DNA from: Nannocystis bainbridge
GTDB lineage: Bacteria > Myxococcota_A > Polyangia > Nannocystales > Nannocystaceae
NCBI RefSeq assembly: GCF_028368995.1
Contig: NZ_JAQNDL010000003.1
Coordinates: 832,001 to 896,000 of the forward strand
Direction: 5' to 3'
DNA: 64,000 nt
Part shown: piece after piece, positions 19,725 through 39,900 of the stretch
Layout of the letters: each line of letters starts with the position of its first letter
How positions within the stretch are numbered: the stretch's first letter is position 1
Notes under the pieces: generated by a model
The model's input: only the letters and a program-made list of their open reading frames with translations
Databases searched by the model: none
Told to the model about the DNA's origin: nothing
Position numbers and translations under genes: made by a program

Positions 19725-20600
19725 TCATGCGTGGCGCGAGACCAGGACGTCACCGACACTCAATCGCAGCACGTGGCGGGCGACACTCCCGAGGAAGGGC
19801 TGGGCCAGGGGAGAGGTATGGTGCCCGACGGCGGTCAGATCCGGATCGAGCTGGGGGGCGGCGCGCTCGATCGTTTGCCGGGGCTCGCCGATCCTCAGGG
19901 CCACCTTCAAGCGGTCGGCGTCGACCTCGGCGTCGCGCAGGAACTCTTCGAGCGCCTCGAGGGCCCGACTTCGCGCGAAGGCCCTGTGTTCTCGGGCCTG
20001 CACGCGCAGCCCGGCGTTGCGGAGCAAGCTGGCGAACGGCGGCTCGTAAGCGTGCAGCACCCGCGCCGTGGCCTGCGGCGCGAGCCGCAGCGCGGACCGC
20101 AACGCCTGGGCGGCGGCGGGGCCCAGGTCGACGCAGGCGAGGAGCGTCCGGTAGGGCGCGCGCGCTGGCTTGCGGACGACCAGCACGTCCCCCGCGAGCT
20201 CCTGCTCGATCAGCCGCTCTGCCGTCGTGCCGAGCATCTGGTCGCGGAAGCGGAGGACGCCGCGCGCCCCGACCACCACGAGATTGGCCTTCAACCGGCG
20301 CGCCGTCGCGGCCAGCGCCGTCACGGGGGTGCCCGTCACGACGTGACCACGCACGTCGGCGCCGTGCCTGCGTGCGCTCGCCACCACGTCCTCGAGCCGC
20401 TCACGCGCGACCTCGGTCCCCGCCGCGACCTCGGGTTCGCGGCGCAGCCACGCCAGCAGCGAGCGGCGGCGCGGGCGGGCGACGTGTACGACCTCCAGCG
20501 TGGCGCCGGCCTCCGCCGCGAGGCGTGCGGCGCGAGCGACGGCGTTGTGAGCGGCGCTGGAGAAGTCGGTGGCGACGAGGATACGTTGCAGCATGGTCAT
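19725..20600 (-). CDS. universal stress protein (tandem USP domains)
   Basis: RILVATDFS, LVVVGARG...LGTTAERL, FLGSVARHVL; AAGGAG ribosome-binding site. Confidence 0.9.
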   Translation of the reverse strand: MTMLQRILVATDFSSAAHNAVARAARLAAEAGATLEVVHVARPRRRSLLAWLRREPEVAAGTEVARERLEDVVASARRHGADVRGHVVTGTPVTALAATARRLKANLVVVGARGVLRFRDQMLGTTAERLIEQELAGDVLVVRKPARAPYRTLLACVDLGPAAAQALRSALRLAPQATARVLHAYEPPFASLLRNAGLRVQAREHRAFARSRALEALEEFLRDAEVDADRLKVALRIGEPRQTIERAAPQLDPDLTAVGHHTSPLAQPFLGSVARHVLRLSVGDVLVSRHA

Positions 20601-21179
20601 GCTCCTTCGGGTAGAGAGAAAAGCTCGATGGCGGGCACCCATCCAATCACACAAAGGATAGCAGACCCTGCGGCTTCGGGTACTCACCACCGCCAAACAG
20701 GTCCGCGCTGCCACGATCGCCGAGAGCGACGCCATTCCGCAGTATTTCGCTCGACGCCCCCCGCTCGGCTCCGGCGCTTGAACATGGCCGCCCCGCCACG
20801 TCGACGGTGGCTCCCGCCGCCGGCTGCGGTGCGCGGGAGAGGGCATGGCGTTGCCGTTACAAACGCTTCGCGGATGTCTGTCGCGCCTGAAAGCGTGACG
20901 AAGCGCTCGAGATCCTTCGTCGCTGTCAGAATCTCACGAGACCTGGACGATGCTCACAGTCCAACCTTTCAGAGTTGAGGGTATTCGAGTTTGCCAGGCG
21001 GACGCCTGTTACCAATGTCGGAGATCGATCGGCCTCGCGGAGCATCGGTGGATCCCCCTGGGACACGCGAGCAAGGGCTCGAGTCTTGCGGCCGCATTCG
21101 CAGCGCAGGCTTCGAACACGCCCTGCAGATCGAGACGCCCGCGAGCGGGCGCACGTCACCTCCACAGCCGTCGCCGCCG

Positions 21180-21275: not shown

Positions 21276-21635
21276 CATGCACCGTCCAGCCAGGTCACGC
21301 AATCGTTCGGAATCCACGAACCATCCGACTCCGGGCAGGTGTCTGGGATGCCCGCACCGTCGCGGCGGTCACGGTCACGATGTCGATCGTGAAGTCCAGC
21401 CGAGCACCACCACCCTGATCCGCAGCAGCAAGAATCACGACTCCGTATCGCCGACGCGATATCTCGTTCGAGCCGCGCATTCTCCGGAACAAAGCTTCCC
21501 CGACGTCACCGATGACGCCAGCGATCGTTTGCCATCCCGGGCCCAGCGCGACCGCCGAGTGCGCGACTCGCTGCCGGTCACCAAGTGCCCGCCGCGGGCT
21601 TGCATCCCTGCCGGGGAACCAGCACCCTTGCGCGG

Positions 21636-22136
21636 GTGACCCCCGCGGACGAACAGAGCACGAGGAGGCGCACGTGGGGCGCGACGCTGCTGTTCGCGGT
21701 CGCGGCTGTGTTCGGTGCTGCCACCGGCTCGGCTGTCGGCATTGGCAGCTACGTATTCGTGTACGCCGAAGGCGCGTCCTACCTGACCGATGACCCGGGC
21801 GCGTGTGCCAACTGCCACGTCATGCGCGCGCACCTCGACGCCTGGTCGCGCTCGAGTCACCACGCCGTCGCGGTCTGTAACGATTGCCACGCCCCGCGCG
21901 GGCTGGTCGGGAAGTACGCCGTCAAGGCGATCAACGGCTGGAATCACTCGGTCGCGTTCGTCAGCGGCGAATTCGCCGAGCCGTTCCACGTCACCCCGAT
22001 GAACCGCCGGGTCACCGAGGACGCGTGCCGGGCGTGCCACGGCGAGATCGTGGCGGCGATCGATCACCCCGGCGGCGACGCGGAGAGGCTCTCGTGTGTT
22101 CGTTGCCACCCCCGCGTCGGCCACGACGTGCAGTAA
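21636..22136 (+). CDS. nrfH: tetraheme cytochrome c nitrite reductase small subunit NrfH
   Basis: N-terminal TM; CANCH, CNDCH, CRACH, CVRCH; C-terminal VGH; GTG start at 21636. Confidence 0.92.
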   Translation: MTPADEQSTRRRTWGATLLFAVAAVFGAATGSAVGIGSYVFVYAEGASYLTDDPGACANCHVMRAHLDAWSRSSHHAVAVCNDCHAPRGLVGKYAVKAINGWNHSVAFVSGEFAEPFHVTPMNRRVTEDACRACHGEIVAAIDHPGGDAERLSCVRCHPRVGHDVQ

Positions 22137-22148
22137 GCACAGCAGCCC

Positions 22149-23558
22149 ATGAACGCCGAAACGAACCCCGAAAAACCCTCCGCGCAGCGGCCGCGACGCC
22201 GGCTGCTCATAGCGCTCGGCATCGGCGCCCTGGTCGCCGCGGTCGCCGCGGCCCTCGCGGTCGCCCTGCTGATCCGCGTCTTCGAGCACAAACAGGAGGC
22301 CAAGCACCCGTTCTTCCGCGTGGTCGAGCTCGACGAATCGAGCACCGACCCGGCCGTGTGGGCGCAGAATTTTCCCCACCATTACGATTCCTATGCCCGC
22401 ACCGTCGATCAGGTGCGCACGCGTCACGGCGGCAGCGAGGCGGTCCTCCGCACCCCGTCCGACGCCGACCCGCGCTCCGTCGTCACGCAGTCGAAGCTGG
22501 CCGAGGACCCGCGCCTGGTGACGCTGTGGCGCGGCTACGCGTTCGCTCTGGATTTTCGCGAGGAGCGCGGTCACGCCTACATGCTCGATGATCAGACCTT
22601 CACCGGCCGCCACGCGGTCGAGCAGCCGGGCGCGTGCCTGAACTGTCACGCGTCGGTCGTCGCCACCTACCTCGAGCTCGGCGGCGGCGATGTGCGCGCC
22701 GGCTTCGACGCGCTCAACCGGATGCCCTACGCCCAGGCGCGCGAGCGTGTCTCTCACCCCGTCGCGTGCATCGATTGCCACGACCCGGCGACGATGCGCC
22801 TGCGGATCACCCGGCCTGCCTTCGCTACCGGTATCGCGGCACTGAAGGCCACGCAGGGCGTCGAGGACTACGACGTCCACGCGCAGGCGACCCGCCAGGA
22901 GATGCGCAGCTACGTGTGCGCGCAGTGCCACGTCGAGTATTACTTCGCCGGGCCCGACAAGACACTGACTTATCCGTGGCGCCAGGGCGCGCGCGCGGAC
23001 GAGATCCTCGCCTACTACGACGAGATCGGCCACAAGGACTGGACGCACGCCACCACCGGCGCCGCCGCCCTGAAGGCCCAGCACCCCGAATTCGAGATGT
23101 GGCTTCAGGGCACCCACGCCCGCGCTGGCGTCGCCTGTGCCGACTGTCACATGCCGTACCAGCGCGTCGGCGCCGCGAAGGTCAGCAGCCATCACGTCCG
23201 CAGCCCGATGCTCGACATCAACGCCGCCTGTCAGACCTGCCACAAGGCGACCGAGGAGCAGCTGCGCGAGCGCGTCGAGACGATTCAGGGCCGTCACCTC
23301 GAGCTGCGCAATCTGGCGATGGACGCGGTCGTGCAGCTGATCGAGGCGATCGCGGCGGCGCAGGCGACACCGTCGCCCGACGAGCAGCGCCTCGCCGCGG
23401 CGCGCGAGTACCAGCGCAAGGCGCAATTTCTGCTCGACTTCGCGGAGGCCGAAAACTCGACCGGCTTCCACGCTCCGCAAGAAGCGGCCCGCGTGCTGGC
23501 GATGGCCATCGACCTGGCGCGACGCGGCCTCGTCGCCCTGTGGGCGCCCCCCGACTGA
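22149..23558 (+). CDS. nrfA: pentaheme ammonia-forming cytochrome c nitrite reductase NrfA (CXXCH at heme 1)
   Basis: GYAFALDFREERGH, CLNCH, CIDCH, CAQCHVEYYF, KAQHPEFE, CADCHMP, CQTCH, ENSTGFHAP. Confidence 0.95.
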   Translation: MNAETNPEKPSAQRPRRRLLIALGIGALVAAVAAALAVALLIRVFEHKQEAKHPFFRVVELDESSTDPAVWAQNFPHHYDSYARTVDQVRTRHGGSEAVLRTPSDADPRSVVTQSKLAEDPRLVTLWRGYAFALDFREERGHAYMLDDQTFTGRHAVEQPGACLNCHASVVATYLELGGGDVRAGFDALNRMPYAQARERVSHPVACIDCHDPATMRLRITRPAFATGIAALKATQGVEDYDVHAQATRQEMRSYVCAQCHVEYYFAGPDKTLTYPWRQGARADEILAYYDEIGHKDWTHATTGAAALKAQHPEFEMWLQGTHARAGVACADCHMPYQRVGAAKVSSHHVRSPMLDINAACQTCHKATEEQLRERVETIQGRHLELRNLAMDAVVQLIEAIAAAQATPSPDEQRLAAAREYQRKAQFLLDFAEAENSTGFHAPQEAARVLAMAIDLARRGLVALWAPPD

Positions 23559-23783
23559 GGCGAGCGCCCGCGAGTCCGAAGGCCGGCGGCTCGACTCGTC
23601 GTGAGCCCGCCCGAGCGATGATCGCTCTTGGCCGATGAACGGCCGCGGTCTACGCATTATCGCCATGACGATTCCTTTCAGCGGAGAGAGACGCGGTGGG
23701 GCCAAGTTTCCGGTGTCCGGAATTCTCGGGATGGAATCGCTGCGCCGCTTGACGAGCTCACGGTCGTGCAGGACCATCCCCTC

Positions 23784-24641
23784 ATGGTGCCGAAGAAGAT
23801 CTTGTTGGCCACGGACCTGAGCTGTCGCAGCGATCGGGCCCTCGATCGGGCGACGATCCTGGCGAACCATTGGAACGCCCAATTGGTGGTCGTCCACGCG
23901 CTGCAGGGCTCGATCGAAGGCGAGGACCTCCCGTCCTGGCGCCGCAAGGCCGACCCGCGGCGAGCCGCCTGGCAGCGGGTGCAGCAGGACCTGCGTGACG
24001 CGAATCAGCTCGATGTGCAGATCGTGGTCGAGGACGCGGAGCCGTCCGCCCTGGTGCTCTCCACCGCCGAGCGCCTGGGCTGCGAGCTCATCATCACCGG
24101 CGTCGCCCGCGACGAGACGCTCGGCCGCATCATCCTCGGCACGACCGTCGAGCGCCTCCTCCACAAGTCGGCTGTGCCGCTGCTGGTGGTCAAGCGACGG
24201 CCGCGCGCGCTGTACCGCGAGGTGATGGTCGCCAGCGATCTCTCCGAGGGGTCGCGGCGCGCGTTGGAGGTCGCGCTGGCCCTGCTGCCAGCGGCTCACG
24301 TCAACCTGTTCCACAGCTTCGACGTGCCGTTCCGCGGGCTGATGAGCAACCCCGCAGCGGTCCGCGAGGCCAAGCGGGACGACGCGCTCATGGAATGCCG
24401 GGCGTTCCTCGCGGCGACGCCGGGATTGGCCCAATCGGGCCGGTCTGTCGGCATGCAGTGCGAGAGCGGATCGGTCGAGTCGCTCCTGCTCGAGCTGCTC
24501 CAGACGCGAGACATCGACCTGGTGGCGATGGGCACGCAGGGCCGCGGCTACCTCTCCGGTCGGCTGCTCGGCAGCGTCGCATTGAACCTGCTCAACAGCC
24601 TCCCGGTCGACATGCTGGTGACGCGCAGCCCGCGAACCTGA
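23784..24641 (+). CDS. universal stress protein (tandem USP domains)
   Basis: KKILLATDLSCRSDRAL, LGTTVERLL, LVAMGTQGRG...LLGSVA. Confidence 0.9.
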   Translation: MVPKKILLATDLSCRSDRALDRATILANHWNAQLVVVHALQGSIEGEDLPSWRRKADPRRAAWQRVQQDLRDANQLDVQIVVEDAEPSALVLSTAERLGCELIITGVARDETLGRIILGTTVERLLHKSAVPLLVVKRRPRALYREVMVASDLSEGSRRALEVALALLPAAHVNLFHSFDVPFRGLMSNPAAVREAKRDDALMECRAFLAATPGLAQSGRSVGMQCESGSVESLLLELLQTRDIDLVAMGTQGRGYLSGRLLGSVALNLLNSLPVDMLVTRSPRT

Positions 24642-25944: not shown

Positions 25945-26832
25945 CAGTGGTGGCAGGAAGAGACGGGTCAGAGCCCGGCCCCGCGAGGAACGCTGACGAC
26001 GGATGAGCGGGCCGAGCTCGTCCGGTTACGCAAGGAATTGAAGCGGGTGGAGATGGAGCGCGACGTTTTAAAAAAAGCGGCGGCCTTCTTCGCCAGGGAG
26101 ACGTGACCGTGTTCCAGGTGATCGCGGCGGAGGAGGCCAGTTTCCCGGTCAGCATGATGTGCGAGACCCTCGACGTCTCGCGGAGCGGCTACTATGCATG
26201 GAAGACACGTGAACCTTCGGTGAGATCGCGGGAGAACGCGGCCCTCGCCCAGGAAGTCCCGGAGATCCATGCCGCGAGCAGGCGGACCTACGGGAGCCCG
26301 CGAGTCCGCAGCGAACTACGAGGACGTGGCCGCAAGGTCAGCCGCAAGCGAGTAGCCCGGATTATGCGCGAGAAGGGAATCCAGGGCCGTCGGAGACCCA
26401 AATTCGCGAGGACGACCGACTCGAACCACAGACTCCCCGTGGCCGACAACGTCCTGGGGCGCAACTTCACCGCCAGCAAGCCCGACAAGGCGTGGGTCGC
26501 TGACATCACGTACGTGTGGACCCTCGAGGGCTGGCTCTACCTCGCGGTGATCATCGACCTGTTCTCGCGCCGCGTGGTCGGCTGGTCGATGGCCGACCAC
26601 ATGCGCACCGAACTGGTCCTCGGCGCGCTGAGGGCCGCGCTGGGGCACCTCCTCACCCGGGATGGTGCGAGGACGGCCATCTCGGAGTGGATCGAAGTAT
26701 TCTACAATCGCCAGCGTCGCCACTCGTCGATCGGGTACTCGACCCCGATCGCCTACGAGGAGAGCTTCTACGCCGAGCAGGCGCAGACTCAAGCGGCATA
26801 AACAAAGTGTCCACTTTTTCGGGGCAATCCCA
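25945..26832 (+). mobile_element. IS3-family remnant (5'-truncated orfA, internally deleted orfB)
   Basis: ELVRLRKELKRVEMERDVLKKAAAFF with A7G slippery site at 26070-26077; orfB YGSPR, WVADITY, LAVIIDLFSRRVVGW then jumps to FYNRQRRHSSIGY with the HSDxGSQY region absent; right end gtgtccactttttcggggcaatccCA. Confidence 0.88.
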
Positions 26833-27069
26833 AAGGCAAGCTGTGGAGGACCGAGGACGATCCGCGCTCGCCGAGGCCCGAGCCCTGGTAGCGACGCTCG
26901 ACGACCTCATCAAACGCATCGGCGGCTCTTGGGACGCCGTCACCCTCACTCGGGCTCATTGAGACGAATTGCCGCCGGGCGGAGCGCGACGACGCGCACC
27001 GGGAGAGGAAGCTGGTCCGTCGCTCGCCCACGCCGCTCTGGCTCGCGTACACTCGCGCTGAGGTCGCCT

Positions 27070-30000
27070 GTGCCGCCCTGCCCATTCTGCGCCATCCCCG
27101 ACAGCCAGATCGTGTGGTCGGACGAGCTCGTGATCGCGGTGCGGGATCTCCATCCGGTCTCGCGCGGCCACACGCTCGTCATTCCCCGGCGCCACGTCGG
27201 CACCTGGTTCGACGCCAGCGCAGCCGAGCGGGAGGCCATTTGGCGAGCGGTCGACGCGATCAAGCACATGCTCGATGCCGGCGACAAGCCAGACGGGTAC
27301 AACGTCGGTTTCAACGCGGGGGCCGCCGCAGGCCAGACGGTCATGCATCTCCACGTGCATGTCATCCCGCGTTACGTCGGCGACATGGACGATCCGCGCG
27401 GGGGGGTCCGCCACGTCATCCCCAGCCGCGGCAACTACCTCCGCGACACTCCGCCGCTCGCTTCGGGCGGCGAGGACGACCCGTTCGCCGCGCACGTCCT
27501 GCCGCTCCTGGCGCGCGCCGAAAAAGTCGACATCGTGTCAGCGTTCGTGCAGGCAAGCGGCCTTGAGCGGATTGAGCATCCCCTCGAGACCGCTCTGCGC
27601 GAGGGCGCTGTCATCCGGATCATCACTGGCGATTACCTTGAGATCACGCAGGTCGAGGCGCTCGAGCTCCTCCTCGACTGGCAGGCGACCCGGGGAGAGC
27701 GGGGGACGCTCGAGGCCAAGGTCGTCGAGGTTGCCGGGCTGCCCGGCCGTACGCGCTCGTTTCATCCCAAGGCCTGGCATCTTGAAGGCCCTGACTTCGG
27801 CGTCGCGTTTGTCGGCAGCTCGAACCTCTCGCGCTCGGCGCTCGACACCGGTATCGAATGGAACCTCAGGGTCGAACGCGATGCCGACGCTCGCGCGTGG
27901 GGCCGCATCCGTGACGCGTTCGCGGCGCTCTGGTCGAGAGCCAAGCCGCTCGACGCGACCTGGATCGCGGCCTATGCCGCCAGGGTACGCGCCCGTCCCG
28001 CCTCGGTGCCGCCGGGCGAGATCGAGGTCGATCCGCCCGTGCGGCTTGCCACGCCCCACGACGTGCAGAAGGAGGCGCTCGCGTGCCTGCGTGCGACTCG
28101 CGAACAGGGCCGACGCCGCGCCCTGGTCGTGCTCGCTACCGGCCTCGGCAAGACCTGGCTAGCGGCCTTCGACTTCGTCCAGCTGTGGGACGAGCTCGGC
28201 CGTGTACCGCGCCTCCTCTTTCTCGCCCATCGCCGTGAACTCCTGCGTCAGGCGGCCGGCACTTACCGGGCGCAGCTGCGCAGTCGCAACGTCAGCGCCC
28301 GCGTCGGCTGGTGCCTCGAAGATCTCGCGGACATCGGCGCCGATCTCGTGTTCGCCTCGATCGCCAAAGCCTCGCGCGCGCCGTGGATCGACCAGCTCGC
28401 CGCCGAGCGGTTCGACTATGTCGTCATTGACGAAGTGCACCACGCGGCTGCGGAGTCGTATCGCAAGATCCTCGCGCGTCTCGATCCGACGTTCCTGCTC
28501 GGTCTCACCGCCACCCCCGATCGTGCCGATGCTGCCGACATCCTCGGCTTGTTCGACGACCACGTCGCCTACCGCGCCGACCTCGCACGCGGGGTCCAGA
28601 TCGGCCGCCTGGTTCCGTTTCGTTACTTCGGTGTCCGCGACGACATCGACTACAAAAACATCCCCTGGCGCCACCATCACTTCGATGCGGAACAGCTCGC
28701 CGCTGCGGCGCAGACCGAGCGCCGTATGCAAACGCTGTGGGTGTCCTGGCAGGCCCATCCAGGCACGCGCACGCTCGTGTTCTGCTGCAGCGTGGCGCAC
28801 GCGGACTACGCCGCCGCCTGGCTGGCGGCGCGGGGCGTGCGAGTTGCCAAGGTTTACGCGGCCCCGGGCTCGGATGACCGCGACCTCGCATTGACACGCT
28901 TGCAGCGCGGCGAGCTCGACGCGATCTGTGCGATCGATATCTTCAATGAAGGCGTCGACGTCCCCGCGCTCGACCGCGTCGTCATGCTACGTCCGACTGA
29001 ATCGAGCGTCGTCTTCCTGCAGCAGCTCGGGCGCGGGCTCCGGGCTGCTCCCGGCAAGCAGGCGGTGACGGTCCTCGACTTCGTCGGTAATCACAAGATC
29101 TTCCTTGAGCGTCTGCGAGCCCTGCTCTCGCTCGGAGATCGTGCCGCGGCGCTCGCCACACTGGTCGCCACCGGCCGCACCGAACTCCCGCACGGCTGCA
29201 CCGTCGAGCTCGAGCTCGAGGCCAAGCGGATCCTCGAGAGCCTGTACCGCCTCGGTGGGGCCGAGCGCGTTGAACAAGCCTACCGGGAGCTGCGCGACAC
29301 TCGCGACCATCGCCCGACCGCGGGCGAGTTGCAGCGTCTCGGATATGCGCCCGCCACCCTGCGCGCTCGCCACGGCAGCTGGTTCGCCTTCGTCGCTGCG
29401 GAAGGTGACCTCACGCCCGAACAGCTGCGCGTGCTCGACAGCGGCTTTCTGGACGACCTCGAAACCACCGAGATGACGAAGAGCTTCAAGATGGTGACGC
29501 TCGACGTGCTCCTCGACGCCGGCGCGCTGTTTTCCGGTCTGTCGGTCCGAGACCTCGCCCTCGGCGCCTGGAGTCGTCTGCGGCGCTCGCCTGAACTTCT
29601 GGCCGATGTGCTCGAGCACGATCGCTTGCCCGCAAATCCCGACGAGTCCGCCGCCCGCCGCTGGGTCGCCTACTGGCGAGACAATCCCATCGCGGCATGG
29701 ACGGCCACCAAGAAGAAGAAACGGACGTGGTTCGTGGTCGACGAGGACGACCGCTTCCGTCTCGCGCTCCCACCCGATCCCGCGCTTCCCGGGCTCGTGC
29801 ACGAGCTCGTCGACTACCGTCTCGCGCGCTACCGCGTGCCGATCAGCGACGACAGCTTTGTTTGCCGGGTAATCTGGAATAAACGCGACCCGATCATCAA
29901 GCTACCCCAGCGGGCGACCGAAAACGTCTCCGGGCAAGAACTCCCCGTTCGTCTGCCCGATGGCTCCGTCTGGCTGTTTCGCTTCGTCACGGGATTCTGC

Positions 30001-31680
30001 AACGTCGCGCGGCCCGTCGGGTCGGCTCGCAACCAGTTGCCAGATCTGCTGCGAAGGTGGTTCGGACCCGCCGCGGGTCAACCCGGCACCGCGTTTGACG
30101 TCCGCTTCGTCGCCAGCCCCGACGGGTTGTGGTGCGAGCCGGTGCAGAGCAACCTGCTCCCGTTCACCCGACGCGCCGTCGTCGCTTATCCGGACCTGCG
30201 CGCTGCGGCTGGTCCCGCGCTCGGGGAAGCCGAGCCGCCCGATTCCGAGCTCGTGCTGTTGCCGGTCGAGGGGGAAGCATCGGATCGGTTCGCGGTGCGT
30301 GTCTCCGGAACATCGATGGACGGCGGTTCGCATCCACTTCGCGACGGTGACTGGGCCATCCTCCGCTACTGCCGCAACTTGCCGGCGAGCGCGCTCACCA
30401 ACTGCATCGCACTCATCCAGCTTCCCGAAGGCAGCTCGTGGCAGCTCAAGCGCATTGTCCAAAGCGAAGGCCGCTGGCGCCTGCTTTCCGACAACCCTGC
30501 GGGTCCGTCGTACGAAGCTACGGAGGACATGCGGGCGATTGCCCGCCTCGAGGGGTCGGTGCGGCCCGAAGATATCGCGCCACCCGTCGGTACGACCATC
30601 ACGGATCTTGAAACCACCTTCGGCATCGCCCGGCCTGCCACCGGCCGATGGGGCGGCCATTTGTTTGTGTTCATCGACAGTCCCGGCCAGCTCGTCGCTC
30701 CCGACAGAGTGCGAGGGTCCGTCGCGCGCCGGCCAGCCGAGACCGCTTTCGTCCTCGCGCAGACCGACGGCGGATTTCAATACCTGGGTGTCGGGCGCTG
30801 GCAAGACGACGGATGGAAAATCCCCGACGTCGACTACCGGACGTGGCAGCGCTGGGGCGACGGACGCACCGTGTCCAGGGTCCTTCCAGATGGCAGCCTT
30901 GCCCGCGCGCAGCGAGTTGTCGACGTGCTCCTCGCCATGCCGAACGCGATGCTTGTCCAGGGGGGGCGGCGTGCCCGCGTTCTCGGTCCGTCGCAGCGCG
31001 GTGGGCTGCGTATCGACGGCGGCGAGGAAGGCTTTGCCGAGCGCTCAATCTCGCTGACCGATCTCGCATGGGTCGCTGTCGCAAGCGACGACGTGCAAGC
31101 CCATGGCGGCGTGCTCGACGAGGCGCGGGTCAACCGCGCGCGCTACCTCGACGGCACGCCCAAGGGCTCGACCCGGTGGATCGACACCGGCTGGGCGCTC
31201 GTTGCCTGGAAGCTGACCGAGCCTCGTCTGGGCTCGTTCGGGCCTCATCGTCCGGTTCGCGCTGACGGCTCGACGATCGACGCGACCTTTCGCCTGGAAG
31301 AGGTCGACGGCCGGCCGAGCATCGTGCTTGAGGCGCGCGGCGGAACCCGCGGTTCGGCCGACGCACGCAATACCGAGTATGCTGTGGGCCTCGAGTTCAT
31401 CCTCGAGCGACTCGCCCAGGCCGAATTGACGCTCGCTGATGCGGCGATCGACACACGCGAGACGGCGCACCTCCCCATCGCAGCTCGACGCCTCGAGCTC
31501 GGGGGGTATCCGGTAAAAATCTTCGACGCAGCCGAACTTCGGCGTCGCCTGAGTACCGCTCAAGCGAAGGTCGGCAAGGCACCTGGCGCCCGGGCGGGCA
31601 ACCCGACACGGCGGCTGCGCCTGTGGCCCGGCGGCGCTGAGCTCGACCTGCCGGCACTGGCGGCGCTCCTGGGGGTGTGA
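27070..31680 (+). CDS. HIT hydrolase + PLD nuclease + SF2 helicase + S24 peptidase multidomain protein, putative defence/restriction enzyme
   Basis: GTG 27070 after GAGG; CPFC...HLHVH (HIT); FHPKAW...VGSSNLS (PLD); ATGLGKT, DEVHH, TATP, QQLGRGLR (SF2); AAAG...VSGTSM...LKR...LSDNP (LexA/S24-like). Confidence 0.88.
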   Translation: MPPCPFCAIPDSQIVWSDELVIAVRDLHPVSRGHTLVIPRRHVGTWFDASAAEREAIWRAVDAIKHMLDAGDKPDGYNVGFNAGAAAGQTVMHLHVHVIPRYVGDMDDPRGGVRHVIPSRGNYLRDTPPLASGGEDDPFAAHVLPLLARAEKVDIVSAFVQASGLERIEHPLETALREGAVIRIITGDYLEITQVEALELLLDWQATRGERGTLEAKVVEVAGLPGRTRSFHPKAWHLEGPDFGVAFVGSSNLSRSALDTGIEWNLRVERDADARAWGRIRDAFAALWSRAKPLDATWIAAYAARVRARPASVPPGEIEVDPPVRLATPHDVQKEALACLRATREQGRRRALVVLATGLGKTWLAAFDFVQLWDELGRVPRLLFLAHRRELLRQAAGTYRAQLRSRNVSARVGWCLEDLADIGADLVFASIAKASRAPWIDQLAAERFDYVVIDEVHHAAAESYRKILARLDPTFLLGLTATPDRADAADILGLFDDHVAYRADLARGVQIGRLVPFRYFGVRDDIDYKNIPWRHHHFDAEQLAAAAQTERRMQTLWVSWQAHPGTRTLVFCCSVAHADYAAAWLAARGVRVAKVYAAPGSDDRDLALTRLQRGELDAICAIDIFNEGVDVPALDRVVMLRPTESSVVFLQQLGRGLRAAPGKQAVTVLDFVGNHKIFLERLRALLSLGDRAAALATLVATGRTELPHGCTVELELEAKRILESLYRLGGAERVEQAYRELRDTRDHRPTAGELQRLGYAPATLRARHGSWFAFVAAEGDLTPEQLRVLDSGFLDDLETTEMTKSFKMVTLDVLLDAGALFSGLSVRDLALGAWSRLRRSPELLADVLEHDRLPANPDESAARRWVAYWRDNPIAAWTATKKKKRTWFVVDEDDRFRLALPPDPALPGLVHELVDYRLARYRVPISDDSFVCRVIWNKRDPIIKLPQRATENVSGQELPVRLPDGSVWLFRFVTGFCNVARPVGSARNQLPDLLRRWFGPAAGQPGTAFDVRFVASPDGLWCEPVQSNLLPFTRRAVVAYPDLRAAAGPALGEAEPPDSELVLLPVEGEASDRFAVRVSGTSMDGGSHPLRDGDWAILRYCRNLPASALTNCIALIQLPEGSSWQLKRIVQSEGRWRLLSDNPAGPSYEATEDMRAIARLEGSVRPEDIAPPVGTTITDLETTFGIARPATGRWGGHLFVFIDSPGQLVAPDRVRGSVARRPAETAFVLAQTDGGFQYLGVGRWQDDGWKIPDVDYRTWQRWGDGRTVSRVLPDGSLARAQRVVDVLLAMPNAMLVQGGRRARVLGPSQRGGLRIDGGEEGFAERSISLTDLAWVAVASDDVQAHGGVLDEARVNRARYLDGTPKGSTRWIDTGWALVAWKLTEPRLGSFGPHRPVRADGSTIDATFRLEEVDGRPSIVLEARGGTRGSADARNTEYAVGLEFILERLAQAELTLADAAIDTRETAHLPIAARRLELGGYPVKIFDAAELRRRLSTAQAKVGKAPGARAGNPTRRLRLWPGGAELDLPALAALLGV

Positions 31681-32809: not shown

Positions 32810-34861
32810 TCACTCGAGCGAGCCGACCATCGCCAGGAATTCCTCCTCGCTGAGGATCTTCAGCGGCGCCCCGGCGGCGATCAGCTCTTCGGCCTTCTTC
32901 TGCTTGCTCGACTTGGCCCCGCGGCCGGCGCCGACCACCAGGAACGACAGCGCCTTCGTCACCCCGGACGGGTTCTCGCCGCCGAGGGCTTGCACGCGGG
33001 CTTGCGCGACCTCGCGGGTGAACGCCTCGAGCGTACCGGTGAACACGAAGCTCTTGCCGGACAGCGCCGCGCCCTCGACCGGGGCTGGCGCCGCCTCGCC
33101 GGGCAGCACCGTCACGAACTCGAGCAGCCCGTCGATCAGCTCCTTGCGGGCCGCGAGGCCGTGCACGATCGCATCGGCGATCGCGTCCTTGATCCCGCGG
33201 ACCGCCGTGAGGTCCGCCTGCGTCAGCTCGCGGATCCGCTCGAGCGTGCGGAACTCGCCCGCCAGCAGCAGCGCGTTCTGCCGGCCCAGGTGCTCGATCC
33301 CCAGCGCTTGCAGGAACACCGCCAGCGGCAGCTCCTTGTGCCCCTCGATCTGCTCGATCAGGTTCTGCGCGCTCTTCTCGCCCAGCCGCTCGAGCCCCTG
33401 CAGATCGACCGCGCGCAGGCGGTAGTAGTCCGCCGGCGTGCTCAGGAGCTCGGCGTCGACCGCTGCGCCGATCACCTTCGGCCCGAAGCCTTGCAGGTCG
33501 ACCACCTTCGCGAAGTGCTCGAGCTCGCCGAGGCGGGCCTGCACGCATTTCTTCGGCTCGGCGCACCACAGGTTCTCGCCGTCGCGCTTCTTGCGGCGCT
33601 CGATCGGCCCGCCGCAGGCCGGGCACTGCGTCGGCAGCTCGAACGGGCGCGACGCCGGGCCCGACTCGACCACGCGCTCGACGTTGGGGATCACCCCGCC
33701 GCGGCGGGTCACCTCGACGCGGCAGTTGTGAGTCAGCCCGAGCGCCTCGAAGATGTTGAGGTTGTGCAGGCTGGCGCGGCCGATCCGCGCCCCGCTGAGC
33801 TCCACCGGCTCGAGCATGGCCACCGGCGTGATCACCCCGGTGCGGCTGACCGACCAGAGCACGTCGAGCAGGTCGGTCACGCCCGAGTCGCCCTGGAACT
33901 TGTAGGCGATCGCGTAGCGCGGGTGATGCCCGGTGAGGCCGAGGCGGCGCTGCTCCTTGACCGACGCCGTGCGGTACACGACCCCGTCGATCTCGTAGTC
34001 GAGCTCGGGCCGGTTGCGGGCCCAGCGATCGTAGCTGGCCTGCAGCCCCTCGCGGTCGACGAACTCGTGGTCGATGCCGCCGAGCCCGAGCTTCTTCAGC
34101 AGCTCGAACTTGTCGCGCTCGCTGTCGAATTCGGGGCCGATGATGTCGTAGGCGAAGAAGCTCAGGTGCGCGTTGCGGGTGTTCTTGCGCTCCTTCTGCT
34201 TGATCGACCCGGCGGTCAGGTTGCGCGGGTTGGCGAAGTCGCCCTTGAACTTGGCGAAGTCGCTGAGCTTCATGTAGAGCTCGCCGCGGACCTCGAGCTC
34301 GACCCCGCCGGAGTCGACCGTGCGCGGGATGTCCTTCACCTCGAGCGCGTTCATCGTGATGTCCTCGCCCTCGGTGCCCGAGCCGCGGGTGGCCGCCATC
34401 ACCAGCTTGCCCTTCTTGTCGTAGCGCAGGCTGCAGGCCACGCCGTCCATCTTCGGCATCACCAGGATCTCGCTGCTGAACTTGCCGGCCCAGCTCTGCA
34501 GGTCGGTCTCGCTGTAGCACTTCTCGAGCGACAGCATCGGCCGCAGGTGGCGGACCGCCGCGCCGAACCGCTGCTCCGGCGCCAGCTGCAGCGCCTCGTC
34601 GGCGTCCATCGCCGGCGCCTCGGCCGCCTGCGGACCCATCTCGTCGAGCACCGCCGCGTCGGGCCGGACCCGCTTGAGCCGCTCGACCAGTTGGTCGTAC
34701 AGCGTGTCCGGCAGCGTCGCCGCGTGGTCGTCCCAGTACTCCTTGTTGGCCCGCCGCACCAGCGCCTCGAGCTCGTCGGCCGTGAACGAGGGCAGCCTGG
34801 CGTTCACCGCGGCGGCGTCGAGGGTCAGCAGGTCGGAGGCGGGGGTCGTCGAGGCGCTCAT
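32810..34861 (-). CDS. ligA: NAD-dependent DNA ligase
   Basis: PMLSL, KMDG adenylation motif, ATRG.G..GEDIT, EVRGE, FANPRN, AIAYKF, RASLHN, CPAC zinc finger, HhH and BRCT. Confidence 0.97.
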   Translation of the reverse strand: MSASTTPASDLLTLDAAAVNARLPSFTADELEALVRRANKEYWDDHAATLPDTLYDQLVERLKRVRPDAAVLDEMGPQAAEAPAMDADEALQLAPEQRFGAAVRHLRPMLSLEKCYSETDLQSWAGKFSSEILVMPKMDGVACSLRYDKKGKLVMAATRGSGTEGEDITMNALEVKDIPRTVDSGGVELEVRGELYMKLSDFAKFKGDFANPRNLTAGSIKQKERKNTRNAHLSFFAYDIIGPEFDSERDKFELLKKLGLGGIDHEFVDREGLQASYDRWARNRPELDYEIDGVVYRTASVKEQRRLGLTGHHPRYAIAYKFQGDSGVTDLLDVLWSVSRTGVITPVAMLEPVELSGARIGRASLHNLNIFEALGLTHNCRVEVTRRGGVIPNVERVVESGPASRPFELPTQCPACGGPIERRKKRDGENLWCAEPKKCVQARLGELEHFAKVVDLQGFGPKVIGAAVDAELLSTPADYYRLRAVDLQGLERLGEKSAQNLIEQIEGHKELPLAVFLQALGIEHLGRQNALLLAGEFRTLERIRELTQADLTAVRGIKDAIADAIVHGLAARKELIDGLLEFVTVLPGEAAPAPVEGAALSGKSFVFTGTLEAFTREVAQARVQALGGENPSGVTKALSFLVVGAGRGAKSSKQKKAEELIAAGAPLKILSEEEFLAMVGSLE

Positions 34862-35424
34862 GAGGGGCCGCGATGTTAACAAAACCGCGCCCGCACGTCC
34901 CCGGCTCGCTTTCGCGCGCACATGCGCGCGACGGGCCCTGCGAGGCCGCAGCGACCTGCGGGCGCGACGTGCGAACCCACGCCGCGAGGTCGATCCCTCG
35001 TGACCTCCGCGCCCGCGACCTGCCGCGGCGGCACGGCGACCGCTCGCGCCCCGGCCGACCCCGCCTCACCTCTCCCGTAGCGATGCGACCGGTACCGCGG
35101 CGATCCGTGAATCCTGGAACAGCCTTCCTTGTGATGCCGCGTACGATCCTCGTCGATGGCGTGCGCGTCACTCGGCGCCGCGACCTCGCACCTCCGTCAC
35201 ACGGGGTCGCGTTCATTGTCGCCAGCTCGAATGCCAATGTCTTGACTCCGCGTGACGGCGACGACAGCCAACGTGCGACCGCGGGTGCTCGCTCGGTCCA
35301 CGCGGTCGGCGGATCATGACAGCCGTGTCGTGCGGCCGCGCGCCGTCGCCCGCCGCGGCGCCGTGAAACCGCCCCGCAGCCCGTTTGGAGCCGTGGCACG
35401 CCTCTTGAAGAGCTCGGGGAACCT

Positions 35425-36759
35425 ATGACTTTCGCCGCCTGTCGTCCCCTTCGTCTCGCGCTTCTCACCCTTCCGCTCATGACCCTGGCTGTCGGCTGCG
35501 GCGATGATGCTCCGAGCGACGAAGGCAGCAGTGCCACGAATGCGTCCTCGCCCGTCGGCACTGAAGGCGGGAGCGGCGGCGAAGAGCCCGGGGACGGTTG
35601 GGGCACCGACGCGCCGGGCGACTCGGGCGGCGCCAGCACTTCCGGCGGCGATCCGGGCGGCGGCGGCACCGACAGCGGGCCCGACTCGGGCGGCGGTAGT
35701 GACACCGACACCGGCGGCGAGGAGCCGATCGATCCGGGCCAGTTGACGGCCGGCGAATGGCGGGACCTCGATCACTGGGACTTCTGGATCGGTCTGCTCG
35801 GCAATGACATGTGGTCGCCGATGCAAAACCTGTGGAAGCTCTACACCAGCCAGCGCTTCGCCGTGGTCGCGCTCTCCGAGCAGGCCCCGGTGGTCGACGC
35901 CGAGGTCGTCCTGCTCGGCGGCGATCAGAAGCCGCTGTGGAGCGCGCGCACCGACGTCCGCGGCCGCGCCGAGCTGTTCAACGGCCTCGTCGGCGCCGCG
36001 GGCGAGGGCCCGTTCACGATCGAGGTCAGCTCCGGCGAATCGTCCGTCACCCTCGCCGACGTCCAGCCGTTCGCCGGCGACCCCGCGATCGCCAACCTCG
36101 ACGCCGCCGAGGCGCCGGCCAAGGTGCTCGATCTGCTGTTCATGATCGACACCACCGGCTCGATGGGCGACGAGCTCGAGTACCTGCAGGTCGAGCTCGC
36201 CGACGTGATCTCGGAGATCCGCGACAACATCGGCCAGTCGTTCAAGCTCCGCCTCAGCGTCAACTTCTACCGCGACCACGACGACGAGTACGTGGTGCGC
36301 GAGTTCCCGTTCACCGAGGACATCGACGCCGCCCTGGCCGACCTCGCCGCGCAGAACTACGACGGCGGCGGCGACTTCCCCGAGGCCGTCAGCGAGGCGC
36401 TCGACGCGACGATCCACAACGCGCAGTGGAGCGCCTCGGCGGTGTCGCGCCTGGCCTTCCTGGTCCTCGACGCCCCGCCCCACGAGGGCGCGCAGGACCT
36501 GGCGCGGATCCAGGAGAGCGTCGTCGACGCGGCCGCCGCGGGCGTGCGCATCATCCCGGTCGCCAGCTCGGGCATCGACAAGAACACCGAGTTCTTCCTC
36601 CGCTTCATCGACATCGCCACCGGCGGCACCTACGTGTTCCTCACCGGCCACAGCGGCATCGGCGGCGAGCACATCGAGCCGACCATCGGTGAGTACCAGG
36701 TCGAGCTGCTCAACAGGCTGCTGGTCCGCCTCATCACCCAGTCGGTCCAGGTCGACTGA
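35425..36759 (+). CDS. vWA-domain lipoprotein
   Basis: LAVGC lipobox; LTAGEW; DLLFMIDTTGSMGDE MIDAS motif; GGGDFPEAV; DAPPH. Confidence 0.88.
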   Translation: MTFAACRPLRLALLTLPLMTLAVGCGDDAPSDEGSSATNASSPVGTEGGSGGEEPGDGWGTDAPGDSGGASTSGGDPGGGGTDSGPDSGGGSDTDTGGEEPIDPGQLTAGEWRDLDHWDFWIGLLGNDMWSPMQNLWKLYTSQRFAVVALSEQAPVVDAEVVLLGGDQKPLWSARTDVRGRAELFNGLVGAAGEGPFTIEVSSGESSVTLADVQPFAGDPAIANLDAAEAPAKVLDLLFMIDTTGSMGDELEYLQVELADVISEIRDNIGQSFKLRLSVNFYRDHDDEYVVREFPFTEDIDAALADLAAQNYDGGGDFPEAVSEALDATIHNAQWSASAVSRLAFLVLDAPPHEGAQDLARIQESVVDAAAAGVRIIPVASSGIDKNTEFFLRFIDIATGGTYVFLTGHSGIGGEHIEPTIGEYQVELLNRLLVRLITQSVQVD

Positions 36760-36916
36760 TCTGCCGCCTTTGCCCACGAGCACGCGCCATTTCGGCGCGT
36801 GCTCGCGTGCTCTTGCGATCCGCCGATCCTCGCCGAACGACGTACGCTCGCATCTTCGCCGCTTCGCCACGACGCGACCTCGTGCGGAAGTGCGGCCTGT
36901 GCCATCCTGGCGCTCG

Positions 36917-39900
36917 ATGCCGTCCTCGCCCCGCCTCGCCGCGCTCGCGGTCCTCTCGGCCGCCCTCGTCGGCTCGGCCTGCGACCGCGCCGGTGATTCT
37001 GCGCCCCGCGACGGCGCGCCCGCCGAGGCCCCGGCGACGGACCCGTGGACGCTGACGGCCCTCGAGTCGCTCGGCGAGCGCGCCGCCCTCGTCGCCGTGA
37101 TCCGGCAAGACACATGGCCGGCGACCGCCGCTCGCCTGGCCCCGCTCCTGCCGCGCAGCGACGCCCAGAGGCCCGCGCGCGCCGCCCTGCTGCTGGCCGG
37201 CCAGCCATCTGTCTTTTTGCACATGCTCTTCGGGACAGCCTCGTCCGCCGCGCCGCCGCTGCCCGGCCTCGACCCGGCGCGCCCGCTGGTGCTCGCGCTC
37301 GACGAGCCGGCCCTCGCCGCGCCGGCCGGCCTGCTCGCCGCCGAGCTGGCGCGGCGACCCGGCGCGCTGCCCGGGTTGCGGCACGAGCTCGTGCTCCCGG
37401 CCCTCGATCCCGCCGGCCTCGCCGACGCGCTCGCGCAGTGGTTCGACGGCCGCGGGCGGCAAGATCCGGCCCTGGCCGCCGGGACCGCGGGCGCGCGAGC
37501 GTGGGTGCTCGGCTCCGGCGATCTCGCGGCCGTCGTGCCCACCGCCGACGCCGTGCGCATCGTCGCGCTGCAGCACGCGCTCGCGCCGGCGGGCACGCCG
37601 ATCGAGGCCGTCCCGTCCGCGCTGCGCGGCGAGCTGCTGCGGGCGAGTCCATCCCCCGCGGCGCGCACCGCTGGCCTCGCGCAGGCAGCCGCCAGCGGCG
37701 AGCCGCTGGCCGTGCTGCTGCGCCCGCGCGTGCTGCCAGCGCTGCTGCAGTGGCAGCGCGCCCGCGCCGACGTCGACGCGCTCGCGCAGGTCAGCCACGT
37801 CGAGGCTGGCCAGCGGCGCCGCGCCGCCCTGGCCGGCCTGCTGAGCTGCGAGCGAGCGCTCGGCGACGGCGCCGTCGACCTCGAGGACTGGCTGTTCACC
37901 GCGACCGCCGATCCGCACGGCCTGCGCCTGCGCGCCTCGGCCGATCTCACCGCCACCGGCGCGCAGGCCCTCGCCGAGCCGCCGGTGGCCCGCGAACCAC
38001 TGGCAATGCGCGGCCCCGCGGTCGCCAGCGTCGCGGTGCGGCTGACCCTCGCCGATCCGCCCGACCCGATCGCCGGGCGACCGATCGACGCCGCGACCGC
38101 GCTGCTCGATTGCCAGGATGTCCTTCCGTACATGGTCTTCGGGACACCTCTCTCGGCGCTGCAGGGCCCGCGCATCCACATCCCCGCGGCGTTCACCGCC
38201 CAGCTCGCGCTCGCCGGCGCCGCCGACGACCTGCGCGGCGCGATCGCCCTCGACCTCGCCGCCGCCGCCGACACCTCGCTGCTGCAGGAATTCGGCCGCC
38301 CCGCCATCACCAACCTCGGCCACGAATTCACGCTGCAGGCCGAGCTCGCCGGCGATCGTCAGCGCGTGTTCGTCGGCGTCGGCGCCGACCCGCGCGTCGT
38401 GTTCGCCGACACCACCGAACCGTCGGGCCTCGTCGCCGCGCGCCTCGATCTGTCCGTGCTCGCGCCCCTGCTCCGCCCCTTCGTCCCCGAGGCGTTGCTG
38501 GGCCATCGCCGCGCCGCCTTCGACCTCGCGCGCGACGGCTCGCGGTTGCGCGGCGAGCTCGTGTTCGACGACGGCGAGGCGATCGCCGCGACCCGACCCG
38601 AGCCCGCGACTCGCGGCGAACCGACCCCTGCTCCCGCGCCGCCCTCGCCCGGCCTCGTCTGCGCCCGTGCCTTCACGTCTCAGGCGATCGACGCCCTCGA
38701 CAAGGCTCGACTGCCCGCCGCCGTGCCCACCGGCCAATCGCTCGACCTCCTGCTCGCCGCCGGCGAATCATCGCTGACCTGCGTCGCGGCCGATCCCACC
38801 ACCGCCGCGCACGCCCCCGCCCTGCGGCGCATGCTGCCGCTCGCCCTCGCCGACCTGCTCGCCGACGCCCTGCGCCCGTCCGAGGCCGCGCGCGTGCTCG
38901 CGGGCCCGTGCGAGGCCGGCGATCCGCTCGCGTGCAGCCGCCGCGCCGAGCTCGCCCAGCTGCCCGACGTCACCTTGCCCGGGCTGCACTCCAACTGCCC
39001 CGATCACCACGCACGCCACGCCTACCGCCTCGTGCTCGCCGGCGATCGCATGGCCCTCGACGACCGCATCGTCGATCTCGCCGCCTTGCAACAACAGCTC
39101 GCCGCCCTGGCCGACGAGCGCGACCCCAGCCTCGAACTGGCGATCGACGCCACCACCCCGTTCGCGGCCGTGCGCCCGCTGCTGGCCGCGCTGGCGCAGC
39201 GCCCCGAGATCCGCCTCGGCATCGTCGCCAGCCACGACCGCGAGACCGCTCCGCTCTACCGCATCCCGACCGTCACCCCGCAGATCGCCGCCAGCTCGCC
39301 GACCGCCTCGCAGCTGTCGCGCATGCCCGCCCACCAGCGCGTCGGCGCCCTCGTGCTCGCTGCCGACGGCGCCACGCTGCGCATGCGCACCGGCACGACC
39401 GCGCTCGGCAGCTACCCCTATTTGCACGCGACCACCATCGAGGCCGACGCGCGCGAGCGGCCCGACAACGGCTTGCCGCCCATGGTCGTCGCCACCGACA
39501 CCACCCCGTGGTCGACCGTCGCCGTGGCCCTCGCCGGCACCTGCAGGCCGCACGTGCTCGTCGACGCCGCCGACATGCAAGCCCAGCTCGGCCCGCCCGA
39601 TCGCACCGTCTCGATCCTTTGGGACCCGCACGGGCCCAAGCCGCTGTCGGTCGTGCCCAAATCGCGCGGCCCCAACAACATCAATTCCGGCCTATTCAGC
39701 GCCAAGCCCCGCGTCGAATACTGCTACGCCCGCGCCCTCGCCGACCGGCCCGAGCTCGCCGGCGCGGTCGTCGTCGACCTCGCGGTCTCGGCCGCGGGCG
39801 CGCTCGATTCGGTCAAGATCGTCTCCTCACGGCTGGCCCACCCGGAGGTCGAGCGCTGCATCATCGACGCGCTGGTCCGCCACACCTCATGGTCCGGGGC

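Follow-up and report, generated by a model that had tools for sequence, protein, structure and literature searches.

The question raised by the locus described here is what a protein might do that carries, in one uninterrupted chain, a HIT hydrolase domain, a nuclease-helicase of restriction-enzyme type and a peptidase resembling the self-cleaving LexA repressor. Its gene lies on the forward strand of a 64,000-nucleotide stretch of Nannocystis bainbridge DNA (contig NZ_JAQNDL010000003.1, positions 832,001 to 896,000), which as a whole we call the window. A preliminary description, made without database searches, had recognised HIT, PLD nuclease, SF2 helicase and S24 peptidase regions in that order within an open reading frame (ORF) of about 1,536 amino acids, had left a C-terminus of about 350 residues unassigned, and had suggested a single-gene anti-phage enzyme whose nuclease-helicase could be released or switched by autoproteolysis. 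We consider it very probable that the gene product is a restriction or defence-type enzyme. With a confidence that is clearly lower, yet still on the favourable side, we propose more fully that it is a solitary modification-dependent restriction enzyme whose self-cleavage is probably stimulated by RecA filaments on single-stranded DNA (RecA*), and which is most likely shut off thereby.

The order of domains in the gene is HIT, PLD nuclease, SF2 motor, coupler, B3-like, S24, SRA-like, an unassigned subdomain and a domain resembling the N-terminus of EcoKMcrA (NEco). Their positions in the window are given below; residue numbers are those of the 1536-residue protein, to which Pfam coordinates were converted from the numbering of the open frame.

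27070..31680, + strand: whole gene, 1536 codons plus stop, GTG start
27100..27375, + strand: HIT domain, residues 11-102 (Pfam HIT, E 3.8e-23)
27565..27933, + strand: PLD (HKD) nuclease, residues 166-288 (Pfam PLDc_2, alignment to the SauUSI nuclease domain)
28051..29046, + strand: SF2 helicase-like motor, residues 328-659 (Pfam, alignment to the SauUSI ATPase)
29257..29841, + strand: helical coupler with a winged-helix-like part, residues 730-924 (fold model, SauUSI alignment)
29845..30156, + strand: B3-like DNA-binding pseudobarrel, residues 926-1029 (VIA-align of the fold model)
30163..30564, + strand: LexA/cI-type S24 module, residues 1032-1165 (Pfam, Foldseek, VIA-align, hhalign)
30208-30213, + strand: predicted scissile bond A1047-G1048, in YPDLRAAAG (conserved Ala-Gly)
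30313-30315, + strand: predicted Ser nucleophile S1082, in GTSM (conserved, aligns with the LexA Ser)
30448-30450, + strand: predicted Lys base K1127, in LKR (conserved, aligns with the LexA Lys)
30556..30861, + strand: SRA-like reader, first half of "domain A", residues 1163-1264 (fold model)
30862..31239, + strand: second half of domain A, residues 1265-1390, fold unassigned (strong conservation)
31240..31677, + strand: EcoKMcrA-N-terminal-like (NEco) domain, residues 1391-1536, an optional tail (Foldseek, VIA-align)

A SauUSI-type core behind an N-terminal HIT domain

The open frame extends from 26662 to 31680 on the forward strand, and its coding part (27070-31677) is uninterrupted and yields the length of 1536 amino acids that had been estimated (protein P0002). 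The GTG at 27070, which is preceded by GAGG at 27060-27063, is the likely start codon. The first 136 codons of the open frame are arginine-rich and have a GC content at third codon positions (GC3) of 0.53, compared to about 0.8 in the remainder.

SauUSI is a type IV restriction enzyme of Staphylococcus aureus, which is ATP-dependent and requires 5-methylcytosine (5mC) or 5-hydroxymethylcytosine (5hmC) in its target. The PLD-helicase core of the protein is homologous to SauUSI by sequence, in agreement with the preliminary description: residues 113-776 align with residues 17-666 of SauUSI (PDB 7clg) at E 4.7e-74 using phmmer, and the best PADLOC model is mREase_IV (E 2.9e-91, profile positions 23-623 of 945). 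All four domains named previously were recovered by Pfam in the order given. The motor matches both ResIII (residues 328-485, E 8.5e-31) and Helicase_C (residues 561-659, E 3.8e-13), while the nuclease matches PLDc_2 at E 2.7e-4 with a score of 21.2 bits, which is under the Pfam cut-off of 27 bits, and carries the HPK and GSSN motifs. Invariance within the core was judged from an alignment of 31 full-length family members, comprising this protein and 30 relatives. In this alignment H232 and K234 of HPK and G249-S250-S251-N252 of GSSN are the same in 31/31 sequences, and the Walker A motif (G358-T362), the DEVH box (D454-H457) and motif VI of the motor are likewise invariant. The remainder of the protein was modelled in two pieces folded with family alignments, residues 730-1165 and 1160-1536, with predicted local distance difference test (pLDDT) scores of 85.8 and 92.2 respectively; in the first of these the coupler superposes on SauUSI 619-796 with Z 7.6, a root-mean-square deviation (rmsd) of 3.2 and 98 aligned residues (VIA-align).

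The HIT domain ahead of this core contains the histidine triad H93, H95 and H97 (HLHVHV, residues 93-98), and HIT proteins in the PDB match the region at E about 5e-16. All three histidines are retained in 28 of the 30 relatives, one of the others having glutamine in place of the first histidine and one lacking the region, and because of this conservation we regard the domain as probably catalytic. NCBIfam matches of the region (Ap4A phosphorylase type, HinT) all fall under the models' own cut-offs. Candidate substrates are a nucleotide, an alarmone or an adenylated DNA end.

A LexA-type S24 module within the enzyme

In both sequence and fold the S24 module has all the hallmarks of a LexA-type domain that cleaves itself, as had been suspected, and the three elements pointed out previously were located at L1043-G1048 (LRAAAG, the codon of L1043 beginning at 30196), S1082 (GTSM) and K1127 (LKR). 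Peptidase_S24 is matched by residues 1068-1158 at E 1.4e-5 with 25.2 bits, over the Pfam cut-off of 23.3 bits. Foldseek searches with the modelled module gave 24 matches at E<=1e-3, including lambda cI (2hnf) at E 1e-4, and all of the matches listed at this threshold are lambda cI or LexA chains. Structural alignment with VIA-align gave Z 12.4 for lambda cI 2ho0 including the cleavage-site region (chain residues 98-229), Z 11.9 for the full lambda repressor, Z 11.5 for Thermotoga LexA and Z 11.0 for E. coli LexA (1jhc). When aligned by hhalign with the genome's own LexA (E 0.0016), the Ser and Lys of the two proteins fall in the same columns, and alignment to LexA predicts S1082 and K1127 to form the catalytic dyad. 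A phmmer search of the S24 segment alone against PDB sequences returned no LexA and two chance-level matches at E about 1; the assignment therefore rests on Pfam, hhalign and the fold, and the likeness to LexA is one of profile and fold.

In LexA, cI and UmuD proteins the scissile bond is Ala-Gly or Cys-Gly, about 35 residues before the Ser. The spacing from site to Ser is 35 residues in the present protein, as it is in E. coli LexA, and 38 in the genome's own LexA, these two proteins being the only S24 matches in the host genome. The AAAG, Ser and Lys are invariant in 26/26 sequences from genome loci, and among the 30 full-length relatives the Ala-Gly, Ser and Lys are kept in 29, the exception (P0023) having lost most of the domain. 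This combined conservation of site, Ser and Lys would be hard to explain for a purely structural domain, and we think it likely that the module self-cleaves.

Two kinds of relative bear on the limits of the module. Several natural variants (P0182, P0211, P0181, P0218 and P0200) join residue ~1027 straight to ~1166, and a second, distant clade has the S24 module as its C-terminal domain, followed by 20-100 residues, and retains the B3-like barrel. Since the variants skip the module cleanly and the second clade ends with it, the module is, from these comparisons, a discrete unit. The predicted cleavage sites of the second clade read FPDLQAAAG, FPNLQAAAG or FPELRVAAG.

Predicted DNA readers on either side of the module

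Much of the C-terminus left unassigned in the preliminary description appears to consist of DNA readers, SRA-like and EcoKMcrA-N-like, and a further putative reader precedes the S24 module. The latter is the B3-like barrel, for which VIA-align gave Z 7.6 to the B3 domain of FUS3, 7.5 to that of R.NgoAVII and 7.0 to ARF1; the segment alone matches no Pfam family at E<=1. The SRA-like domain, with the B3-like barrel and the S24 module lying between it and the coupler, has as its best match the target recognition domain (TRD) of SauUSI (residues 803-953, Z 6.9, rmsd 2.8, 84 aligned; VIA-align). Below it are fourteen more rows of SRA domains or readers of modification-dependent enzymes, with Z 4.4-6.2. 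These comprise SUVH5, KRYPTONITE, SUVH6, SUVH9 and two UHRF1/NP95-type SRA entries, and the restriction enzymes TagI, AspBHI, LpnPI, PvuRts1I, MspJI and AbaSI together with two ScoMcrA entries. We find the SRA-like assignment credible because its top match is the corresponding domain of the homologue SauUSI and the rows below belong to one functional class.

The second half of domain A (residues 1265-1390) is the part of the C-terminus that is still unassigned. Its invariant residues include N1355, R1358, Y1359 and D1372, and neither Foldseek nor VIA-align gave a clear structural match. Domain A as a whole matches no Pfam family at E<=1 when searched alone, and a search of the ESM Atlas with it gave scores of 0.79 or less and nothing usable.

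The last 146 residues resemble the N-terminal domain of EcoKMcrA (6r64_A) by both Foldseek (E 2.2e-5, TMt 0.70) and VIA-align (Z 15.4, rmsd 2.9, 138 of 145 residues aligned, 20% identity). On the strength of the model, the tail would have a modified-cytosine reader fold and is predicted to bind 5mC or 5hmC. The same domain also opens a number of otherwise unrelated proteins (P0210, P0230, P0234, P0203, P0222, P0256 and P0219), in which it is followed by EVE, NOV_C (DUF3883), HNH_2 or protein kinase domains, and in which no Pfam model recognises it. The company of EVE, NOV_C and HNH domains is described as typical of type IV readers (Lutz et al. 2019, PMC6765204).

A solitary gene with signs of mobility

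The best homologue of the protein is from Nannocystis sp. RBIL2 (94% identity across 99% of the length), and the family is large, all 120 best database matches sharing its architecture; in public records the relatives are named 'DEAD/DEAH box helicase family protein' or 'YejH'. Queries with the S24 module and C-terminus show the family to be patchy, with 29/401 sampled genomes of the phylum positive, that of N. bainbridge included, and 0/4 genomes of the same family. A total of 73 loci were fetched from several myxobacterial genera (Nannocystis, Minicystis, Sorangium, Anaeromyxobacter, Archangium, Pyxidicoccus and Vitiosangium) and from several metagenome-assembled genomes of Planctomycetota. 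Every segment from HIT to domain A is present in 41 of these, of which seven have the NEco-like tail; the other 32 are cut by contig ends or divergent. Some loci from Sorangium and Polyangiaceae (L060, L073, L075 and L089) match scattered segments only, for example HIT to coupler followed by the second half of domain A, and may be decayed or rearranged copies.

Two suggestions about the make-up of the family were rejected. Relatives of ~1265-1300 amino acids might have formed a distinct short class, but they end inside domain A, mostly in the middle of a motif, and are more likely truncated records. A strict coupling of HIT and S24 was ruled out, as all four combinations of presence and absence occur.

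The gene appears to be a single-gene system, as had been proposed, with no conserved neighbour: when ORFs of plausible GC3 were considered, no cluster outside the span of the gene was common to more than six of the 73 loci. Scanning of ORFs up to about 7 kb from the gene in both directions revealed no methyltransferase, and no C5 methyltransferase (PF00145) was found in the host genome, which is 90.5% complete. Two features immediately upstream are relevant to how the gene may have arrived at its present position.

26103..26801, + strand: remnant of an IS3-type transposase, abutting the gene (Pfam HTH_21, E 4e-18; rve profile positions 2-61 of 102)
26875..27069, + strand: upstream stretch travelling with the gene (blastn against two Nannocystis genomes)

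In blastn comparisons with Nannocystis sp. RBIL2 and N. exedens DSM 71 (loci L018 and L019), whose proteins are 92-94% identical to the present one, only the gene and at most 195 bases upstream match (93%). The match begins at 26875 or 26976 and extends to 31674 or 31676, while the flanks are unrelated, and the gene lies at different places in the three Nannocystis genomes. As the gene matches while its flanks differ, it has moved on its own. The gene has a GC3 of 0.79 and the flanking genes 0.84-0.95, which bears out the earlier remark that its codon usage is less GC-biased than that of its surroundings, and the adjoining IS3 remnant that had also been noted is recognisable from HTH_21 and a partial rve domain. 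Patchiness, unshared flanks, lower GC3 and the abutting IS3 remnant together suggest an accessory and mobile gene. A search for repeats between 26600 and 32000 found no terminal repeats framing the gene, and tblastn of residues 926-1390 gave no match in plasmid and phage collections. In N. exedens DSM 71, DDE_3 and IS66-type transposase genes lie upstream of the gene.

How self-cleavage might act on the enzyme

We propose an enzyme of the SauUSI kind (type IV) that would be solitary, horizontally mobile and ATP-driven. By homology to SauUSI, two protomers would pair their single HKD motifs into a nuclease and the SF2 motor would translocate on DNA, while the choice of DNA would fall to the B3-like barrel and the SRA-like reader, joined in this copy by the EcoKMcrA-N-like reader. 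DNA damage, or breaks made by the enzyme itself, would give rise to RecA filaments on single-stranded DNA, and these would stimulate self-cleavage at A1047-G1048. The products would be a HIT-PLD-motor-coupler-B3 fragment (residues 1-1047, ending in RAAA) and a fragment of S24 core, SRA-like and NEco-like domains (residues 1048-1536). The motor would then be uncoupled from the readers and, by analogy with LexA, a C-terminal degron would be exposed for ClpXP. Restriction would be turned off, the module acting as a built-in restriction-alleviation fuse against self-restriction. The host genome encodes ClpX and two full-length RecA genes (G000:C2:671568-672356 and G000:C5:151182-151967, 466 and 417 bits), the product of either of which could be the co-protease for both LexA and the present protein.

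The S24 module follows the SauUSI-type coupler and precedes the reader of SauUSI type, so that a cut within it would separate two readers from the nuclease-motor. The preliminary description's idea of an autoproteolytic switch is upheld as far as the S24 hallmarks go, but such a cut would do more than simply 'release' a nuclease, the outcome that it had offered as one possibility. Three precedents lead us to favour shut-off over activation: in SauUSI, recognition of 5mC by the reader stimulates the ATPase via the coupler (PMC7913695); LexA-type cleavage exposes ClpXP degrons beside the site, leading to removal of the N-terminal fragment (PMC10584840, PMC5742171); and type I enzymes are subject to damage-triggered proteolytic restriction alleviation by ClpXP (PMC4231737, PMC12707154).

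The best of the alternatives is that the switch works in the opposite direction, as the preliminary description itself proposed, which would involve an identical anatomy. The S24-reader part would restrain the nuclease-motor, or confine the motor to modified DNA, until RecA*-stimulated cleavage, triggered for example by phage replication or recombination intermediates, freed an unrestrained nuclease-translocase to degrade phage DNA or host DNA (abortive infection). The TRD of SauUSI gates the ATPase through the coupler (PMC7913695), so that taking a gate away might switch the enzyme on as well as off. We nevertheless think this direction unlikely, as target recognition in SauUSI is described as stimulating the ATPase, so that loss of the reader should lower activity, while the ClpXP removal of LexA-type fragments and the ClpXP alleviation of restriction both point to shut-off; in addition, the clade in which the S24 module is terminal has no reader to remove.

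It is improbable, we believe, that the S24 module no longer cleaves and serves instead as a LexA-like dimerisation or scaffold domain joining the two reader ends. S24 C-terminal domains do dimerise in LexA and cI (PMC10584840) and SauUSI works as a dimer (PMC7913695), but a scaffold offers no reason for the Ala-Gly, Ser and Lys to be invariant in all 26 sequences from genome loci. The same residues are kept in the second, distant clade, and the sole relative with a degenerate site (P0023) is also one that has lost most of the domain.

Least probable is an SOS-linked myxobacterial repair or recombination helicase-nuclease in which self-cleavage tunes repair and the HIT domain cleans adenylated DNA ends: some relatives are recorded as 'ATP-dependent helicase YejH', NCBIfam RadD (NF053632) is matched at E 1.5e-24 and ligA lies 1.1 kb away in the window, but the RadD score is 86.3 bits compared to an equivalog cut-off of 720, the distribution is patchy with the gene absent from the four same-family genomes searched, the ligA neighbourhood is not conserved even in the two other Nannocystis genomes, the closest characterised relative is by far a restriction enzyme, and the tail domain is common to EVE-, NOV_C- and HNH-bearing proteins of the type IV kind. 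A HIT enzyme that does repair adenylated DNA ends is aprataxin.

Several observations weigh against a restriction enzyme that is shut off by its own RecA*-stimulated cleavage. Which way the switch would act is conjecture. The new alanine-rich C-terminus would fit the idea of a degron, the LexA degron resembling an ssrA tail, but by analogy only. The clade with a terminal S24 module is a further difficulty: as the module is its last domain, detachment of readers cannot be the function shared by the two clades, while a mechanism based on degron exposure, or on the loss of S24-mediated pairing, would suit either clade. The strand bearing the cleavage site is modelled with a pLDDT of 53-65. The B3-like and SRA-like assignments, with Z 6.9-7.6, are in the middling range for the tool and weaker than those of the core, and no Pfam DUF3427 match was found in the whole protein at E<=0.1 or in domain A alone at E<=1.

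The surroundings of the gene give one further point of this kind. A myxobacterial LexA-box consensus fits the genome's own lexA promoter at 15/17 positions by eye; in the window, allowing up to two mismatches, it has four matches compared to 5.6 expected, none of them near the gene. No LexA-box-like motif lies upstream, and there is no sign of SOS transcriptional control. A search of sequencing runs listed no RNA run containing the gene. Neighbours were sought at 24 loci with long flanks (187 candidate ORFs), 87 ORFs from 14 loci being scanned. Transposase or defence-type neighbours were present at eight of these 14 loci and absent from six, which speaks for an accessory, mobile gene, although the count comes without a background rate. 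These neighbours are IS66 or DDE_3 transposases, HsdM with Fic, a WYL protein, JetA with an SNF2 helicase, AbiEii/AbiEi, a plain PLD-helicase-DUF3427 gene, and an AAA_5 protein with a DUF2357-PDDEXK_7 protein.

Comparison with known systems

The protein is SauUSI-like at its core and LexA/cI-like at its switch, and is a plain member of neither family. SauUSI has been divided into nuclease (residues 1-191), ATPase (221-617), coupler (618-805) and SRA TRD (806-953) (PMC7913695). The present protein has the same order of PLD nuclease, SF2 motor, helical coupler and putative SRA-type reader, with sequence homology over ~660 residues and a coupler and putative reader that resemble those of SauUSI in fold, at middling Z. 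Like SauUSI it is encoded by one gene, beside which no cognate methyltransferase was found. It differs in having an N-terminal HIT domain, a B3-like barrel and full S24 module between coupler and SRA-like reader, and an extra conserved subdomain and EcoKMcrA-N-like tail, and in lacking a Pfam DUF3427 match. In common with LexA, lambda cI and UmuD it has the S24 fold, an Ala-Gly site located on a strand that precedes the core, the positions of Ser and Lys and the spacing. In contrast to LexA and cI, however, the part before the site is a 1047-residue enzyme with no helix-turn-helix repressor domain, and the S24 core is followed, in this clade, by about 370 more residues.

Two other restriction systems share parts with this protein. 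EcoKMcrA has an N-terminal reader of 5mC and 5hmC fused to an HNH nuclease; the NEco fold recurs in our last 146 residues, and relatives of the domain are fused to HNH_2 as in McrA, but in the present protein it is an optional C-terminal appendage of a PLD-motor enzyme. NgoAVII and CglI combine an R-protein of PLD and B3 domains with an SF2 ATPase on a chain of its own. A PLD nuclease, a B3-like binder and an SF2 motor are all found here too, but in one chain, with no adjacent methyltransferase gene and with sequence homology to SauUSI instead. A parallel in concept is the ClpXP-dependent alleviation of EcoKI through HsdR, in which danger to the host's own DNA leads to the proteolytic removal of a translocating restriction motor (PMC4231737, PMC12707154). 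There the host protease recognises the stalled or translocating complex, whereas here the first cut would be made by the enzyme's own S24 module.

Searches of the open literature gave no paper in which a restriction enzyme is described as having an S24, LexA-like or HIT domain. The terms S24 and LexA are absent from the texts of PMC6765204 and PMC7159879, and LexA and autoproteolysis from that of PMC12707154. No published account of the architecture was found in the literature searched.

Other genes of the window and the host genome

The genome also encodes a plain SauUSI-type paralogue of 1033 amino acids (G000:C5:354361-357459; L002:1102-4200), which has PLD, helicase and Pfam DUF3427 domains, is 37% identical over residues 132-735 of the protein described here, and is without HIT or S24. 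In the window, a LigA ORF lies 1.1 kb downstream of the gene on the opposite strand (32810-34921, - strand), in a neighbourhood that is not conserved in relatives. It has about 120 residues ahead of the adenylation domain, and its first start codon may not be real. Upstream is a cytochrome c nitrite reductase pair (NapC/NirT-type, 21585-22136, and Cytochrom_C552, 22149-23558), flanked by tandem-Usp proteins at 19725-20933 (- strand) and 23628-24641 (+ strand). A 1085-residue ORF at 36689-39946 (+ strand) has no Pfam match at E<=0.01 and GC content rising to 0.75-0.80, and is overlapped on the opposite strand by an ORF of 1005 residues.

Implications

Entry of a methyltransferase or of a modified base into the cell makes restriction enzymes directed at modified DNA a danger to their host, and the safety control of solitary enzymes of this kind is, to our knowledge, poorly understood. 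A bolder reading, which we hold to be less likely than not, is that this would be the first restriction enzyme with its own SOS fuse, in which a self-cut at RAAA|G, brought about by RecA filaments, would detach the modified-base readers and, through the alanine-rich C-terminus so exposed, send the nuclease-motor to ClpXP, and in which the HIT domain would add a second, nucleotide-level input or a step of DNA-end processing. We know of no described restriction enzyme with a HIT-type nucleotide input or DNA-end-processing step. With up to three DNA-reader folds and a translocating nuclease, the protein could also become a tool for mapping modified bases.

If the proposal is true, the known uses of S24 autoproteolysis would extend from repressors and UmuD to a large nuclease-motor. 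One polypeptide would perform the damage-triggered alleviation of restriction for which type I systems need the help of the host, and restriction would be tied directly to the RecA damage signal without a transcriptional circuit.

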